64,000 nt of DNA from Patescibacteria group bacterium (GCA_018818205.1 JAHISJ010000013.1:16661-80660), one strand, 5' to 3'; positions 3,976-64,000 are shown, counted from the first letter of the stretch. The notes: generated by a model from the letters alone, not told the origin. Program-made: numbers and translations.

Positions 3976-5235
3976 ATGAGAAAACGTGCGCTTGATTTTT
4001 ATGCGTGTCCGGCGTGTAAGACGTTTCCACTGTTTCTTTCACATGATAGAGATGAGGTGATATTCAATAATCTCTTAGATGTCGCGGCAGAAACATATCA
4101 ATGCAAGCAGTATTGTAGCCGTAATCGTCGGATGGTAAATAGCCAGGACGATGCATATGCACTCGGATGTAAGAAATGCCATGAAGAGCAGGTTAAAACA
4201 GCAACGCTTACCTGCAAAAAATGTGGCTATGTTTTTTGTATAGAAAACTTTCTTCCAAACTTTAGACTAGATCATGCTAAAAAGCATAGCAGCGATCATT
4301 GCGAGTCACTGGGGAAAGGCGTTGTTCAGAAGCATGAATCGTTTTATACAAGGGCAGAGCAGGAAAAGGAACTGTATAGAAGAGTTAAAGCACTTTTACC
4401 TTTTAGCAGAGCAAAAAAACCTCGAGCAAAAAAGAATATGGAGGACGATCTTGAGTATCGGTCTAAATATCCTGAGAAAGATAAATATATTCCGGTTTTT
4501 GAGGAATATCTGTCAAAAAAACCTGTATACACTCTAGAGCTCGGTATTGGTCAAGGTGGGTTTACCTCGAGCGTTAAGAAGTTTTTTAAACCTGCAGTGT
4601 CATTTGGCCTAGACTATGAGCCTAAATGGGCAGAGATTGCGTGGATTCGTGATCCGGAAACAGAAGTGCTTACAGCAGACGCGCGTAAACTTCCCTTTAG
4701 AGATAGTTCAATCGATTTAGTATTTTCTGCATATACACTTGAACACATTGTAAACGTTGATCCAGTCATTCATGAAACAGCGCGTGTTGCTGATGAAGCA
4801 TTTTTAGTATTTGGCCCCAGCAAATGGTCTCTTTACGACGTTCATTTTGAAAAGGCGCCGCTTGTGCCACTCTTACCTGCGTTTTTAGCAAAGCGTCTTG
4901 CGTACTTGTGGAAGGTTAAGAAGGTTGGATTTAATTATGCACAGGGTGAAATATTTGATGAGTATGCTACAATGAACTACATACGACCGTCCTACTTTGA
5001 GAGACTTGCTCACAAGGCTGGTTTTAAACCTGTTCCGTTACTAAAAGAACAGCTTACTGAGTCGTTTAAGGAGGCGTATCAGTACCATTCAATTATGAAG
5101 GTTGTACAGAAGTTTGGCTTTATAGTACTTCCCATTGTTTCTTTGGTGGAGAAGATGAAGCTACAACCGTTTATGGTCTACTTTTTAAAAAAAGAAAAAG
5201 CAACGATAGTTGAAAAAAAGAAAGCAAAAAAGTAA
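3976..5235 (+). CDS. Trm112-like zinc-ribbon fused to a class I SAM-dependent methyltransferase
   Basis: N-terminal FYACPACK...LTCKKCGYVFCIENFLPNF matches the Trm112 CPxC...CxxC...IP pattern. Methyltransferase motif I LELGIGQGGF and motif II DLVFSAYTLEHI follow. Confidence 0.6.
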   Translation: MRKRALDFYACPACKTFPLFLSHDRDEVIFNNLLDVAAETYQCKQYCSRNRRMVNSQDDAYALGCKKCHEEQVKTATLTCKKCGYVFCIENFLPNFRLDHAKKHSSDHCESLGKGVVQKHESFYTRAEQEKELYRRVKALLPFSRAKKPRAKKNMEDDLEYRSKYPEKDKYIPVFEEYLSKKPVYTLELGIGQGGFTSSVKKFFKPAVSFGLDYEPKWAEIAWIRDPETEVLTADARKLPFRDSSIDLVFSAYTLEHIVNVDPVIHETARVADEAFLVFGPSKWSLYDVHFEKAPLVPLLPAFLAKRLAYLWKVKKVGFNYAQGEIFDEYATMNYIRPSYFERLAHKAGFKPVPLLKEQLTESFKEAYQYHSIMKVVQKFGFIVLPIVSLVEKMKLQPFMVYFLKKEKATIVEKKKAKK

Positions 5236-5242
5236 TATACAT

Positions 5243-5581
5243 ATGTCAAAGGACATTGACATGAAAAATGAGTACGAAGATGAATCGGATGACAGTTATG
5301 AATACGATGATTATGATGAGGATGAGATAAACGAGTTCTTGGAGAACGAAGAGGAGGAGGGGAAGTCTTTTGATGTAGTAAGAGCTGAAGTTCACGAGGT
5401 ACTTGCTCGCTATTTTGAAAAGAACGAAGTTCCCTTTGCTTGGGAGGCAAAGATTTTGCTAGATAATGTTGCTCAGGCTATTCACGATCAATTTGCGACA
5501 CATGAAGAAGATATTACCAAGTTGTACGAGGAGGTAGATCGGTTGAAGATGAGGGATAGAGAGAAGGATTCTAGGAAATAG
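5243..5581 (+). CDS. hypothetical highly acidic protein (DE-rich N-terminus)
   Basis: ORF with start moved to 5243 to avoid overlap with the upstream gene. Followed by a strong intrinsic terminator. Confidence 0.45.
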   Translation: MSKDIDMKNEYEDESDDSYEYDDYDEDEINEFLENEEEEGKSFDVVRAEVHEVLARYFEKNEVPFAWEAKILLDNVAQAIHDQFATHEEDITKLYEEVDRLKMRDREKDSRK

Positions 5582-5602
5582 GGCTATATTTTGGCTAAGT
5601 TT

Positions 5603-5638
5603 AAAAATACGATCGAATGATCGTATTTTTTTTGTTTG
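5603..5638. terminator. bidirectional rho-independent terminator (8-bp stem atacgatc/gatcgtat, loop gaat, A-run before and T-run after)
   Basis: Hairpin 5607-5626 flanked by aaaa and ttttttttt; lies between convergent genes. Confidence 0.6.
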
Positions 5639-5646
5639 TATTTTAT

Positions 5647-5755
5647 ATGTCATCCCGGACAGTTTTTCCGAAAACTGATCCGGGATCTCGTTGAGTGCAG
5701 CATTAGAAACGAGATCCCGGATATCCACTTAAGAAAGTGAATTCCGAGATGACAT
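5647..5755. repeat. structured palindromic element (closing stem atgtcatc/gatgacat enclosing three hairpins); its core is about 85% identical to the perfect palindrome at 62541-62588
   Basis: Core gtcatcccggacagtttttccgaaaactgatccgggat compared with gtcatcccggatcagtctttccgaagactgatccgggat. Second hairpin gggatctcgtt/aacgagatccc (11 bp). Confidence 0.5.
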
Positions 5756-15990: not shown

Positions 15991-16797
15991 ATGACTAAAA
16001 AAATACAGGTTCAAGGTGTTGAAATTTCTATCATTTCTAAAAATGAAGATGATTTTATATCTTTAACCAATATGTTAAAAGCAAAAGATGGTGATTTTTA
16101 TATTTCAGATTGGTTAAGAAATAGAAATACGGTTGAATTTCTTGGTGTTTGGGAAAAAATAAATAATCCCAATTTTAATTATGGCGAGTTCGCCATAATT
16201 AAAAGTAAGGCAGGCTTAAATAGTTATAAAATAAGTGTTAAGGAATGGGTTAAAAAGACTCATGCTATTGGGTTACGATCAGTGGCTGGTCGATACGGCG
16301 GAACATATGCTCACAAAGATATTGCTTTTGAATTTGGAATGTGGATTAGCCCAGAATTTAAAATCTATCTTATCAAAGAGTTCCAAAGACTTAAAGAAGA
16401 AGAAAATGAACGTTTATTCCTTGGTTGGGATGCGAAACGAACACTAACAAAAATAAATTATAAAATTCACACAGACGCTATAAAGAAACATATTATTCCA
16501 ACTTTAGTTACCAAGAAACAAATAGATTTTGTTTACGCGAATGAAGCAGATGTCCTGAATGTCGCTCTTTTTGGAATGACCGCAAAAGAATGGACGGATA
16601 AAAACGTGAAACTAAAAGGAAATATGCGAGATTATGCTAATGTTGTACAATTAGTGTGTTTAGCGAATTTAGAGAGTATGAATGCGGAATTTATCAGACA
16701 AGAGCTTTCGCAATCAGAGAGATTGCAAAGACTAAATAAAATCGCGCTTGTTCAGATGAAGTCTCTTGCTAAAAGTGAAAGTATTAAGAAATTTTAA
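15991..16797 (+). CDS. KilA-N domain-containing protein (phage/mobile-element-associated DNA-binding family)
   Basis: KIQVQGVEISIISKNEDDFISLTNM...FYISDWLRNRNTVEFLGVWE...YGGTYAHKDIAFEFGMWISPEFKIYLIKEFQRLK matches the conserved bacterial KilA-N family. The gene is markedly more AT-rich than its neighbours. Confidence 0.6.
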   Translation: MTKKIQVQGVEISIISKNEDDFISLTNMLKAKDGDFYISDWLRNRNTVEFLGVWEKINNPNFNYGEFAIIKSKAGLNSYKISVKEWVKKTHAIGLRSVAGRYGGTYAHKDIAFEFGMWISPEFKIYLIKEFQRLKEEENERLFLGWDAKRTLTKINYKIHTDAIKKHIIPTLVTKKQIDFVYANEADVLNVALFGMTAKEWTDKNVKLKGNMRDYANVVQLVCLANLESMNAEFIRQELSQSERLQRLNKIALVQMKSLAKSESIKKF

Positions 16798-33584: not shown

Positions 33585-34342
33585 AGAATAAAATAAAGAT
33601 AATTATTGTAGGAGCAGGGGAGGCTGGTTCTCTTATTTCAAAGAATATTTATGATGATAAAAACTCTCCTTTTGAACTTGTAGGCTTTGTTGATGATGAT
33701 TTGAAGAAGAAAGAAAAAAAGATTAATGGGAAAAAGGTTTTGGGGGAGCTTAAAAATCTGAAAGAATTAATTGATGAGTTTTCAATAAAAGAATTGCTTA
33801 TAGCTATGCCCTCCGGACGCGGTGATGTCATTCGGAAGGTTCTGGATTGCACTAAAGATAGGCGGGTTCGGTATAAAATAATTCCCAGAAGTACCAAGGT
33901 GTTGATACAGGACTTTGGCGAGAGCTATCTTAAACATATCCGAGATGTATCGGTTGAAGATTTGCTTGGAGGTGAGATTGTAAAATCTGAACTTAAGGTA
34001 ATTGGAAAATATCTCAAGAATAAATGCATATTGATAACCGGTGCGGCAGGGTCAATTGGCTCTGAGCTTGCACGGCAAGTTGCCGCTTTTAGCAATGCTA
34101 AAAAGGTTATTTTGTTTGATTGGTCAGAAAACGGTATGTTCTTGTTGCAAAATGATATTCAGGGGAGCTATCCGAACCATCCCGTTGAGTTTGTTATTGG
34201 TGATATTAAAGATAAACAAAGATTGAATTATATTTTTGACACTTTTTCTCCTGATCTTGTGTTTCATGCTGCAGTGTATAAGCACGTACCTTTAATCTCT
34301 CCAGGGGTTCTATCCCCCGCCGCTTGCGGCGTGATATACTAG
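33581..34342 (+). pseudogene. 5' fragment of a CapD/PglF/WbpM-like NDP-sugar 4,6-dehydratase, truncated at the IS200 left end
   Basis: ILITGAAGSIGSELARQV...FHAAVYKHVPL, then the reading frame runs into the IS left end and stops; about half the expected length. Confidence 0.6.
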
Positions 34343-34825
34343 AGCTATGAGCACATATGTACATAAAAGTCATAATGTAAGCGTGTTACTGTATCACCTG
34401 GTATTTCCTGCAAAGTATCGTCGTGTGGTTATCGATGCACAGGTAGATGAAATTATCAAAGAAACATGCTTGGAAATTGCACAGAGGTACGAAGTACATT
34501 TCCTTGAAATAGGTACAGACAAGAACCACATACATCTGTTGGTACAAAGTGTTCCCACATACACGGTGACCAAACTTGTTACGATGATAAAAAATATTAC
34601 AGCCAGACACGTTTTCAACCAATGTCCCGATGTGAAAAAACAACTTTGGGGTGGAGAATTCTGGTCAGACGGATACTTTGCAAGTACGGTAAGTAAACAC
34701 GGAAATGAAGATATGATATCAAATTATGTAAAAAAGCAGAGAGAAGAGTACACAAAGCTACACAATAATCATCAACTTCGGTTATTCTAGCGGATACCCC
34801 GTCCGCTTGCGGCGGGGTAGTTTAT
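34300..34825 (+). mobile_element. IS200/IS605-family insertion sequence (tnpA only) with subterminal hairpins at both ends
   Basis: Left-end hairpin ccgccgcttgcggcg (about 34317-34331). Right-end hairpin ccccgtccgcttgcggcgggg (34797-34817). Y1 transposase gene between them. Confidence 0.75.
34347..34790 (+). CDS. tnpA: IS200/IS605 family transposase TnpA (HUH Y1)
   Basis: HUH motif HIHLLV, catalytic Tyr in SDGYFASTV; 147 aa. Confidence 0.85.
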   Translation: MSTYVHKSHNVSVLLYHLVFPAKYRRVVIDAQVDEIIKETCLEIAQRYEVHFLEIGTDKNHIHLLVQSVPTYTVTKLVTMIKNITARHVFNQCPDVKKQLWGGEFWSDGYFASTVSKHGNEDMISNYVKKQREEYTKLHNNHQLRLF

Positions 34826-61388: not shown

Positions 61389-61601
61389 TTACCTCTTCTT
61401 AAATATCAACATCACCCCAAAAAACAACACAATATACTTCAGAATATTCAAATCAAAATAGTCACTAATAAATCCCGGATTTAACGTATCAATAAGTAAA
61501 AATACAATAAAGGTGATACACGCTATAATAAAACAAAAAGTCGTGATATCAAAAATAAATGTAAGTGTAGGATTATCTGATTGTTCTTTGCTGTCCATCA
61601 T
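61389..61601 (-). CDS. small membrane protein (70 aa)
   Basis: Two TM helices; tightly packed between flanking genes. Confidence 0.3.
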   Translation of the reverse strand: MMDSKEQSDNPTLTFIFDITTFCFIIACITFIVFLLIDTLNPGFISDYFDLNILKYIVLFFGVMLIFKKR

Positions 61602-62452
61602 ATCTTAAAGAATTTTCTTGCTTTAGTTATCACTTTCTCAAAGGTGAGCGGTTCTTTTTCTAATGTAATCTTAATTTCTGCAATTTCAATTTCACTGTCT
61701 TTCTCTTTTAAACCCGGTGCTGCAAGCATGAATCTGATAGTGTTTTTGTTGTCAACGTAAGCATTTTTGTAGTCGAACGTATTTTTGGCAACGGTCCAAC
61801 CATTAACGTTGTCTGGGGGAGTGTAGTGTGCAAGAATATAGTCAATTCCCTCCAAATCGACGTTGTGCCTTAGAGGACTTATTAGTGTTGGCTCAATCTT
61901 TTCCTTAGGTACGTATTTTGTTATATCAAAATTGTATACTAGTATTCGCTTGTCATTTGGATAGTTAGTGTAAAATTCTTCAAGAGAGGAAAAGTCATTG
62001 TTTTTCTGGTATAAAGTTCCTTCTGGCCCTTCGACTTTGTTCCAGTCACTGGTATTAAGTAGTTTTGACTCAAGAGGGAGTTTTTTGTAGTTATCCTTAT
62101 CATTGATTCTGAGTCCCAGATCAAAAATGGTAGCGCCTGGATTTTTGTAGGTAATCTGAACCGTTATTTTCTCAAAAGGGTCCTTTTTTTCTAAATCAAA
62201 ATAGACTGCATCGTCATGCATTTTCTGAAAATAGATCCCATCTTGCTCCAAAATAGGGGAGAGTCGTTCCCAAGGCTCAAGGTGGGAAATAAGTGCGTTA
62301 TCCTCGCTAAAATCGTATACAAGCTCTCTTTTGCCTGAGAATACGAAATTTTTTTCTAAAATCCAAAAAAGAAGCAGGATTGGTAGTATGCAAATGACTA
62401 CTTTTAGCGCAATAGACAGTATTTTGAGCGACTTACTTTGTCGTTTTTCCAT
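61598..62452 (-). CDS. membrane-anchored extracytoplasmic protein, unknown function
   Basis: N-terminal TM segment, then a 250-aa hydrophilic region. Confidence 0.5.
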   Translation of the reverse strand: MEKRQSKSLKILSIALKVVICILPILLLFWILEKNFVFSGKRELVYDFSEDNALISHLEPWERLSPILEQDGIYFQKMHDDAVYFDLEKKDPFEKITVQITYKNPGATIFDLGLRINDKDNYKKLPLESKLLNTSDWNKVEGPEGTLYQKNNDFSSLEEFYTNYPNDKRILVYNFDITKYVPKEKIEPTLISPLRHNVDLEGIDYILAHYTPPDNVNGWTVAKNTFDYKNAYVDNKNTIRFMLAAPGLKEKDSEIEIAEIKITLEKEPLTFEKVITKARKFFKI

Positions 62453-62540
62453 ATACTTATTATACGGGTTTTTAGGTGAAATCCAAGGTTTCTTTTGTGA
62501 AAAGTAGGGTATGAAGCAGCGTGATCTTACTCATAAATAG

Positions 62541-62588
62541 TCTGTCATCCCGGATCAGTCTTTCCGAAGACTGATCCGGGATGACAGA
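62541..62588. repeat. perfect 21-bp-arm palindrome (ctgtcatcccggatcagtctt tccg aagactgatccgggatgacag) in a divergent intergenic region; related to the element at 5647-5755
   Basis: Direct inspection; the two arms are exact reverse complements. Confidence 0.6.
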
Positions 62589-62687
62589 TAGTTTATTGTA
62601 TTTCGGTGCCTACTGGGGTTATAGGATGGTAGGCTTACTATTTTTTCTCTTGAAAAGCATCAAGAATTATGCTAGAGTATTAGCAAT

Positions 62688-64000
62688 ATGTCAACTATCA
62701 AACATGCGTCAAAAAATGCGCTCTGGCTTACGATTGCAGAAATTGTTGCCAAGGTTGTTGCGTTTATTTCAGTTATTCTAATCACGCGCTATTTAACCAA
62801 AGATTCCTTTGGACAATACACGTTTGTCATGTCTATGGGTATTATCTTTGGTGTTTTGGCCAATTTTGGCTTTGGGGTGTACGTCACCAGAGAAATAGCA
62901 AGAAGTAAAGAGAAAGCAGGGAAGATTGTGGGGAATTTGCTTTCACTAAAGCTTATTCTCTCGGGTGTGGTGCTGGTTTTACTTTTTCTTACTGCGCAGT
63001 TCTTAGATAAACCTTCGTACGTTGTTATTGCAATTTACGTTGTTAGTTTCTTGACAGTGTTTGATGCACTGAGGTCTTTTTTAGGTGGCGTGTTTCAAGC
63101 CTATGAAAAAATGGGCTATTTGGCCGTAGTCAAGGTAGGGGAGCGACTTCTCTACTTAGTACTTGTGCTTGTTGCTATTTATCTCGATAAAGGCATTGTT
63201 TTTATAGTCGGGTCTGCTGCTGCAGCATCCTTTATTTTTGCGCTCGTTTCTTTTGCTCTTGTTCATTACAAATTTACTCCAATCAGGCTCAGATGGGACA
63301 AGGTTTTTATCTTACAGATTTTGCTTGGCACCGTCTTTTTCCTTATTAACGATATATTCATTGTTGTCTTTTTTAGAATCGACACTGTGATGCTTTCACT
63401 TATGACGAGTGATGCGCTTACGGCAACGTATAGTGCAGCCTATAACCTGATTTACGCGGTTACCTTTATCCCTGGAGTCCTTTCTGCGGTATTATTTCCC
63501 GTTCTTACGCGATTCTACAAGACCAATAAAGATGTTTTTAAAAGCAATCTTACCCTCATTTTCAAGTACTTTATGCTTGTGTCTCTTCCGGTCATGGCAT
63601 TTTTTATTATTTTTTCTGAAAAGCTTATTGTTATTATTTACAAAGAGAAGTATATAGATTCAGTACCGATATTTCAGCTGTTGACGTTTGGGCTTGGCTT
63701 TGTCTTTTTGAACTTTATTTTTAGTACCATTTTGAACACGGTAAATAAGCAAAAATTGGTAGCTGCATCATCGTTTATTGCTATGATATTAAACATTGTT
63801 TTAAATTTTATCCTTATTCCTCAGTTCACTATGTATGGTGCAGCGGTAGCAACAATTATTACCGAATTCACTTTTTGCCTTGCCTTAGCACTATTTGTCC
63901 ATAAACAGTTTAAGATAGTAAATACTGTTATTCTAAAAAAGCTTTTGTTTGTTTGCATTTCACTAGTGGTTGCTATTGTCTGTGCGTATATTGCTCGGTT
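62688..64000 (+). CDS. Wzx-like flippase (MOP superfamily), 3'-partial at the window edge; not in the supplied ORF track because it has no stop
   Basis: Manual translation from ATG 62688 is open to the window end (437 codons): MSTIKHASKNALWLTIAEIVAKVVAF... multi-TM, ...YGAAVATIITEF... Confidence 0.7.
   Translation, partial: MSTIKHASKNALWLTIAEIVAKVVAFISVILITRYLTKDSFGQYTFVMSMGIIFGVLANFGFGVYVTREIARSKEKAGKIVGNLLSLKLILSGVVLVLLFLTAQFLDKPSYVVIAIYVVSFLTVFDALRSFLGGVFQAYEKMGYLAVVKVGERLLYLVLVLVAIYLDKGIVFIVGSAAAASFIFALVSFALVHYKFTPIRLRWDKVFILQILLGTVFFLINDIFIVVFFRIDTVMLSLMTSDALTATYSAAYNLIYAVTFIPGVLSAVLFPVLTRFYKTNKDVFKSNLTLIFKYFMLVSLPVMAFFIIFSEKLIVIIYKEKYIDSVPIFQLLTFGLGFVFLNFIFSTILNTVNKQKLVAASSFIAMILNIVLNFILIPQFTMYGAAVATIITEFTFCLALALFVHKQFKIVNTVILKKLLFVCISLVVAIVCAYIAR

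Follow-up and report, generated by a model that had tools for sequence, protein, structure and literature searches.

A perfect hairpin with arms of more than 20 bp, lying between two divergent genes, raises the question of whether it serves those genes or merely resides beside them. The case considered here is a palindrome, termed element B, in a 64,000-nt stretch of DNA (the window) from a Patescibacteria group bacterium. The initial annotation took it for a copy of an element also present at 5649-5686, and suggested that it could act as a cruciform or regulatory structure for both neighboring genes.

The window is almost wholly one glycan-assembly region. Besides more than 20 glycosyltransferases and three MOP flippases, it encodes dTDP- and UDP-sugar enzymes, an O-antigen-ligase-like protein, and an ABC-2 exporter pair. 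At 15991-16797 (+), amid sugar-nucleotide biosynthesis genes, lies a gene for a KilA-N domain protein (Pfam 6.7e-25).

Structure of the palindrome

Direct reading and a base-by-base check of element B, TCTGTCATCCCGGATCAGTCTT-TCCG-AAGACTGATCCGGGATGACAGA, give 22 complementary pairs (62541-62562 with 62567-62588) without a mismatch, closed by the 4-nt loop TCCG (62563-62566). The palindrome had been described as having 21-bp arms; its perfection, coordinates, and loop stand, while the arm length is corrected to 22 bp. Imperfect pairing around it reaches 30-nt arms at 90% (62533-62596), and among the short-range inverted repeats of the window element B is the longest. The RNA fold has a free energy of -48.5 kcal/mol (z = -9.4), and the single-stranded DNA fold of either strand -27.1 kcal/mol (z about -10.5).

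By our own estimate, a perfect 22-bp hairpin is expected about 1e-7 times in 64 kb at the base composition of the window, which bears out the remark that arms this long rarely arise by chance. The sequence stems from a metagenome assembly, and chimeric joins can make palindromes. However, element B is identical in two assemblies (ENA ERZ27247128, contig k141_365028, 82,950 bp; Logan SRR6514274, L002), and homologous copies occur on the contig and in the hundreds elsewhere. A chance palindrome or an assembly artefact is thus a practically negligible explanation.

Long perfect palindromes seem to be recurrent in these genomes. One with 28-bp arms (TGCTTTTTGATCTTCCGTACGGGCGCGC-cgcg-...), which belongs to another sequence class, is found at L123:11-70, about 9.6 kb beyond the start of the window on the same contig. 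Two identical hairpins with 11-bp stems (TGGCTCCAGTC-tct-GACTGGAGCCA; L123:3626-3650 and 4352-4376) lie 726 nt apart near small genes with no Pfam family. The coordinates of element B, its relatives on the contig, and its flanking features are collected in Table 1.

Table 1. Repeat elements of the contig and features flanking element B (window positions, except where prefixed by L123).
Feature	Position	Strand	Evidence or remark
Element A, full-length head-to-head doublet	5648-5754		Folds, relaxed regex, model R1; convergent genes on either side
Unit A1 of element A	5648-5690	+	R1 37.9 bits, E 1e-8
Central hairpin of element A	5678-5722		15-bp arms
Unit A2 of element A	5710-5754	-	R1 30.9 bits, E 1e-6
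Element C, third copy	L123:5062-5170		Same contig, 4.6 kb beyond window start; same three-hairpin architecture as A; between divergent genes
Element B, palindrome with 22-bp arms and TCCG loop	62541-62588	both	Pairing check, fold, model R1, MAFFT
Left terminus of B, TGTCATCCCGGA	62543-62554	+	TGTC tag (CGTC variant) plus conserved 8-nt stem arm ATCCCGGA
Inner variable hairpin of B, T-CAGTCTT-TCCG-AAGACTG-A	62555-62574		T62555 pairs with A62574
Right terminus of B, TCCGGGATGACA	62575-62586	+	G62583 after stem (canonical, C)
Divergent 284-aa gene	61598-62452	-	No Pfam family; NCBI: hypothetical protein KKH43_02525 [Patescibacteria group bacterium]
Putative promoter box TATAAT, leaderless-type	62459-62464	-	6 nt before ATG of 284-aa gene
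Promoter-like TTGAAA-17-TAGAGT with upstream TG	62650-62678	+	Ends 9 nt before flippase ATG
Distal promoter-like TTGACA-17-CATAAT	62666-62694	-	11/12 matches; over flippase start codon
Wzx/MOP flippase gene	62688-64000	+	Off window end, 476 aa on full contig; Pfam Polysacc_synt 3.8e-39, Polysacc_synt_3, MatE

Copies on the same contig

The core said to be common to element B and the region at 5649-5686 is indeed shared and overrepresented, since ATCCCGGA occurs 7 times in the window against 0.74 expected, and TCATCCCGGATCAG, with up to 2 mismatches, 3 times against 0.13 expected. The 5649-5686 region is more than one simple hairpin, and forms part of element A, which consists of two inverted units. 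Unit A1 reads TGTCATCCCGGA-CAGTTTT-TCCG-AAAACTG-A-TCCGGGATCTCG, and unit A2 TGTCATCTCGGA-ATTCACTT-TCTT-AAGTGGAT-A-TCCGGGATCTCG. Both start with the tag TGTCAT and carry CTCG after the stem. Because their CTCGTT tails pair into the central 15-bp hairpin, element A folds as a cloverleaf of three hairpins. Direct 8-bp repeats of ATCCCGGA lie inside it at 5652 and 5714.

The full-length copies A and C are thus paired inverted units, each of the form TGTCATCCCGGA-variable stem-ATCCGGGATCTCG. Over the approximately 75 kb of contig covered, the family comprises three elements, with four canonical units (the two head-to-head dimers A and C) plus element B. The left terminus of B is the exact 5′ end of A1, A2, and more than 300 units in other phyla, and a single compensatory pair sets its inner hairpin apart from hairpin 1 of element A (CAGTTTT-TCCG-AAAACTG). 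The tag TGTCAT occupies 62543-62548, and by symmetry recurs on the minus strand; it is base-paired in B and unpaired in the canonical unit. Likewise, A62574 holds the position of a bulged A that is conserved in canonical units. After the conserved stem, element B carries G62583 and then ACAGA on both strands, G62583 replacing the canonical 3′ C because in B the complement of the tag comes after the stem.

Since A lies between convergent genes and B and C between divergent genes, the copies have no consistent place relative to transcription units. A canonical terminator-like hairpin with a T-run (AAAAATACGATC-gaat-GATCGTATTTTT; 5603-5630) is located directly upstream of element A, which is therefore not needed for ending the upstream gene.

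Relationship to known repeat families

Hairpin units of this kind have been described as the CGTC-tagged REP superfamily, with families CGTC-1 to -4 (Di Nocera, De Gregorio & Rocco, 2013, BMC Genomics 14:522; PMC3733652). CGTC-REPs have a terminal CGTC, often TGTC, 8- to 9-bp stems beginning with AT, 4- to 5-nt loops, and a CCA-like unpaired tail; they occur mostly as head-to-head dimers with the tags outside, and are known in five phyla, including Neisseria dRS3 and Rickettsia RPE-4 and RPE-6 (PMC3733652). The Neisseria member is the NTS, CGTCATTCCCGCGMAVGCGGGAATCYRG; SsnA, a single-domain GIY-YIG nuclease of about 100 aa, binds and cuts it solely when it is single-stranded DNA (Chenal et al., 2025, Nat Commun 16:2388; PMC11893778). 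The C just 3′ of the palindrome is most critical for SsnA binding, whereas the three bases 5′ of the palindrome weigh most for cleavage. The motif was generalized as the SRM, HGTCWYN(0-2)YYVSBRHN(0-5)WNVSBRGN(0-2)RNCYNB, which is found nearby for 71% of ssn homologues, in an IS-like SRM-ssn-SRM order (PMC11893778).

The units of the window share with CGTC-REPs the terminal tag (here TGTC), the 8-bp stem starting with AT, and a short unpaired 3′ tail (CCA or CTC). Head-to-head dimers with the tags outside, predominant in the published families, are represented here by A and C, the spacer ends are complementary in both, and the location is intergenic, without a Y1 transposase. The differences lie in the loop, 4-5 nt in the published families, where the window units add a variable inner stem of 7-8 bp and a bulged A; in the host, Patescibacteria being missing from the published five phyla; and in element B itself, a single, symmetric hairpin with a tag at either end, for which the nearest published parallel is the collapsed Wolbachia dimers mentioned in passing (PMC3733652).

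Feature by feature, the 5′ tag of the CGTC-REP/SRM units is present in B, A1, and A2 as TGTCAT, and the stem of 8-9 bp beginning with AT is also found, the ATCCCGGA/TCCGGGAT stem of B recurring unchanged in more than 300 units from other phyla. None of the three has the short loop (4-5 nt; N(0-5) in the SRM), and B lacks the 3′ tail with C in first position (CCA or CTC; RNCYNB in the SRM). The strict published regex, with loop N(0-5), has 0 matches in the window. When loops of N(0-30) are allowed, A1, A2, and one match that is likely due to chance (0.46 expected) emerge there, and B is still missed. Within the CCCGGA sub-family the strict regex fits 126 of 148 units with short loops; 177 of 179 long-stem units elsewhere escape it, loop length being the sole failing feature.

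A covariance model, R1, was trained only on 34 units of other genomes, none of them from this one. It scores element B marginally, at 20.9 and 20.3 bits on its two strands (E about 1e-3), approximately 10-20 bits under the canonical units of the same contig, and the units of element C at 40.6 (C2) and 28.1 bits. C2 is found by the model only, while A1, A2, and C1 also fit the loop-relaxed pattern. R1 detects no further unit in the window, and none in 54 kb of three related Patescibacteria contigs. The view that the palindrome is a copy of the family to which the 5649-5686 element belongs is upheld. No Rfam family matches the window at gathering score, or overlaps the motif in 16 related loci, and a literature search for palindromic repeats in Patescibacteria returned nothing specific.

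REPINs (Bertels & Rainey, 2011; Nunvar, 2010), which are reportedly GTAG-tagged hairpin repeats served by RAYT, an HUH Y1 transposase, resemble the present family in several ways. Inverted unit doublets form a larger hairpin, the copies are dispersed and intergenic without target-site duplication, and the presumed driver is an enzyme recognizing an ssDNA hairpin. They differ in the tag, GTAG as against CGTC or TGTC, and in the enzyme, an HUH Y1 transposase as against a GIY-YIG protein. The REPIN-like architecture of A and C, together with a Y1_Tnp gene at 34347-34790, might suggest a classical REP or REPIN moved by RAYT or by an IS200-type Y1 transposase. However, this gene, the only Y1 gene of the window, encodes an ordinary IS200 TnpA (NF033573, 127.9 bits with a cut-off of 55; RAYT NF047646, 25.5 bits with a cut-off of 80). 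It is bordered by its own GC hairpins of CGGCG type, unrelated to the TCCCGGA units, and R1 finds no unit nearby; the RAYT hypothesis was dropped on the strength of the TnpA identity and these hairpins. The unit tag is moreover (C/T)GTC and not GTAG or GTGG, and the published survey reported “no dedicated transposase” for CGTC-REPs, and no Y1 gene flanked by CGTC units (PMC3733652). An origin of this kind is therefore highly improbable. The IS200 copy itself looks complete, with a 147-aa TnpA on the plus strand and hairpins at about 34318-34331 and 34795-34819, and its insertion sits in a glycosylation gene cluster between fragments of 253 aa (CapD-like) and 194 aa (GT1).

Distribution and conservation of the unit

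A wider motif search, which the initial annotation had recommended, proved productive, placing the unit in more than 300 places over many phyla. The pattern GTCATCCCGGA-N5-35-TCCGGGAT occurs at more than 120 loci among the matches listed for a species-representative genome collection, and in 113 IMG/VR viral contigs (L149-L261). Several contigs of the viral collection hold multiple copies, L213 for example five. The hosts include Alpha-, Beta-, Gamma-, and Deltaproteobacteria, Bacteroidota, Fibrobacter, Omnitrophota, Elusimicrobiota, Chloroflexota, and Patescibacteria, and the GC content of the genomes that carry these units ranges from 0.35 to 0.75. Four Patescibacteria are among them, namely members of the Daviesbacteria, Saccharibacteria, and Parcubacteria and one unclassified (L024, L087, L095, and L106). 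A pattern for the doublet center, ATCCGGGATCTC-N12-32-GAGATCCCGGAT, yielded 21 metagenome loci, mostly complete doublets in the order tag-unit-spacer-unit-tag.

The canonical unit is asymmetric: it has (C/T)GTC as its 5′ tag, its 8-bp stem ATCCCGGA/TCCGGGAT encloses a variable inner stem-loop and a bulged A, and its 3′ tail reads C(CA/TC). Among 329 units elsewhere, 304 (92%) have C directly after the stem and 293 (89%) an unpaired bulged A before TCCGGGAT, while a T.A closing pair at the bulge position, as in B, is seen in 6. The loop is either 5 nt or an additional stem-loop of 12-37 nt. In a gapless alignment of the 34 foreign units the inner stem covaries, with 67 double-change cells against 19.3 +/- 3.9 in shuffled alignments, and 93% of its cells are paired against 19-45% in slid controls. 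Symmetric loci with the tag at both ends (GAC), like B, number only 4 elsewhere (L019, L027, L178, and L256), all of which keep the bulge; collapses of the B type are thus rare, at about 1-2% of copies.

Association with GIY-YIG genes

Five fetched loci, selected by the motif, hold six single-domain GIY-YIG ORFs of about 105 aa (Pfam PF01541). The ORFs of L146 and L128 have units on both sides, 15-77 nt off, and that of L020 at 289 nt and about 20 nt; L061 has two ORFs in tandem between unit pairs, and the ORF on the IMG/VR contig L212 is bordered by a unit on one side, at 3 nt. The nearest R1 unit is mostly less than 100 nt from the ORF, the maximum being the 289 nt of L020. As units, those of long-stem form included, flank GIY-YIG ORFs, the CCCGGA sub-family is linked to Ssn-type genes.

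Of the fetched loci, L146:5276-5882 shows the IS-like order unit-gene-unit most clearly, with an Ssn-like GIY-YIG gene (5423-5737, minus strand) placed between two near-identical 131-nt doublets in direct orientation.

Searches by regex, phmmer, and jackhmmer found no GIY-YIG/Ssn gene in either the window or the adjoining 9.7 kb (L123). There was no trace of an ssn gene with a KKH43 tag among the 120 listed of 7,997 protein-database matches, and a PDB sequence search with an Ssn-like ORF gave just a weak match to UPF0213 (1zg2, E 0.007). The units resemble the NTS and SRM in the 5′ HGTCWY signature, the hairpin, the 3′ C, and, elsewhere, an IS-like arrangement around single-domain GIY-YIG genes, but differ in that no ssn gene was found on the approximately 75 kb here. 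In addition, the window units exceed the loop limit of the regex, and B is devoid of the 3′ C critical for SsnA binding.

By analogy with the Neisseria system, units of the family would act as ssDNA hairpins: small single-domain Ssn GIY-YIG nucleases would bind them and cut close by, and the genes of these nucleases would typically be bracketed by units in an IS-like manner. The repeats may spread or persist in intergenic space as selfish or domesticated DNA. Under the Neisseria rules A1 and A2 should be Ssn substrates, and B should not. Because element B has neither the bulged A nor the 3′ C, the Neisseria mutagenesis implies that it is probably a poor or dead Ssn substrate.

Origin of element B

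In a MAFFT alignment, element B aligns to the doublets as TGTC, a gap of 65 columns, and then a right-hand unit, ATCCCGGAT-hairpin-TCCGGGATGACAGA. The first 16 nt of B after the gap, ATCCCGGATCAGTCTT, agree at 16 of 16 positions with the right unit of L147, a doublet whose metagenome also yielded the relative L125. We consider it most probable, at roughly 0.65, that B is a degenerate symmetric copy of the CGTC-REP/SRM hairpin repeat, produced by the collapse of a head-to-head doublet, and that it is a passenger with no dedicated regulatory role. The ancestor would have been a doublet of about 106 nt, head-to-head with the tags outward as in A and C. The alignment suggests that some 65 nt were lost between two direct ATCCCGGA repeats, and slippage or recombination between these repeats would yield precisely such a product. 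A later change of 1 nt would have paired the bulged base, giving a perfect hairpin with 22-bp arms, tagged at both ends and without a 3′ tail. No close relative with a complete doublet at the site of B was found. The flawless 22 bp could reflect either recent formation or selection for some function.

A 5-bp direct repeat, ATAGT, surrounds element B at 62537-62541 and 62588-62592, one base outside TGTCA...TGACA. Target-site duplications flanking the copies had been proposed as a point to check, and are not borne out, as direct repeats flanking 31 doublets are no commoner than in permuted controls and ATAGT is found at B alone. This repeat is probably due to chance, and the deletion model for B does not require it. 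Excising element B together with one ATAGT copy would leave the AT-rich near-palindrome CATAAATAGTTTATTG.

An origin as a MITE derived from a DDE transposon is unlikely, since terminal inverted repeats are present but the 31 doublets show no excess of target-site duplications.

A more speculative possibility, which we regard as doubtful, is that the doublets are a non-autonomous mobile form moved via ssDNA by Ssn, in the manner of a transposase or homing enzyme and without target-site duplication, and that perfect, double-tagged palindromes of the B type are footprints of excision or rejoining in this reaction instead of plain slippage deletions. If this were true, the occurrence in Patescibacteria would connect an Ssn-driven system to the DNA-uptake lifestyle of these organisms.

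Flanking genes and the regulatory question

The gene at 62688 had been called Wzx-like, and its Pfam matches agree with this identification. The reported distances are also accurate: element B is separated by 100 nt from the flippase ATG (62688) and by 89 nt (given as 90) from the divergent start (62452). On the side of the 284-aa gene, the arrangement TATAAT-N6-ATG is common to the window (L001) and to L124 and L125; its exact 6-nt distance in three diverged relatives suggests leaderless transcripts in this lineage. On the flippase side, the proximal motif ATTATGCTAG(A/G)(G/A)T (TGcTAG(A/G)(G/A)T) is kept in L124, so that this locus and the window have in common a TG-extended -10-like box ending 9 nt ahead of the flippase ATG. 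If the proximal boxes are the promoters, then B lies upstream of both and outside their transcripts. The distal minus-strand site is also found in L124 and, if active, would read through B toward the 284-aa gene. However, its -35 box coincides with the ATG-TCA codons of the flippase, so its conservation may reflect coding constraint.

The initial annotation favored a cruciform or regulatory structure for both genes, that is, a palindrome at which a dimeric DNA-binding protein or supercoil-driven extrusion would tune the two promoters. The perfect dyad, its central position between the divergent starts, and AT-rich flanks that favor extrusion all fit such a role. Nevertheless, operators are much shorter than 22-bp arms, and the sequence of B belongs to a dispersed repeat that recurs across unrelated contexts and phyla. 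Comparison with relatives is more telling. In L124 (49% protein identity) the orthologous pair, a flippase and a 283-aa gene, works with a spacer of just 67 nt that has no palindrome. The spacer of L125/L126 (50% identity) measures 243 nt, and at the same site there is an unrelated palindrome, also perfect, whose 30-bp arms (GGCCATAGGCCATGGAGACCCCTCTGGGAC) enclose a loop of 19 nt (L125:4519-4597, equal to L126:4520-4598); its sequence has nothing in common with the TCCCGGA family. Because the short L124 spacer is free of a palindrome while the proximal promoter motifs are kept, dedicated regulation by B is not supported, and a shared operator or cruciform is distinctly improbable.

It has also been argued that many REPs act as RNA (PMC3733652), and B could be an RNA-level element, transcribed from the distal minus-strand site as a leader hairpin of the 284-aa gene and serving as a bidirectional terminator or insulator or as an mRNA stabilizer. 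The high stability of its RNA fold is in keeping with this idea, as is the distal promoter-like site directed through B (11/12 matches; 62694-62666); both strands of B are also picked out by a terminator scan, with T at 5 of the 8 positions past the stem. On the other hand, the T-tracts beside B are interrupted (TAGTTTATTG and CTATTTATGA), and between divergent starts there is nothing to terminate. The conserved proximal motifs at both ATGs would give transcripts free of B, the conservation of the distal -35 box may be due to its overlap with the flippase start codons, and SsnA does not bind RNA (PMC11893778). A role at the RNA level is consequently unlikely, though B may have an insulating or terminating side-effect.

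Implications

Annotating the palindrome as a copy of a known family of repeats guards against over-reading it as an operator that serves a polysaccharide flippase. For the family itself, the long-stem head-to-head doublets in Patescibacteria and in several phyla absent from the 2013 survey are new, as is the finding that the inner stem is hypervariable and yet covaries, with the bulged A and the 3′ C strongly conserved. The GIY-YIG genes flanking units in the fetched loci tie the “REPs without a transposase” of 2013 to the Ssn nucleases of 2025, and symmetric collapses of the B type would provide natural negative-control substrates for tests of Ssn specificity.
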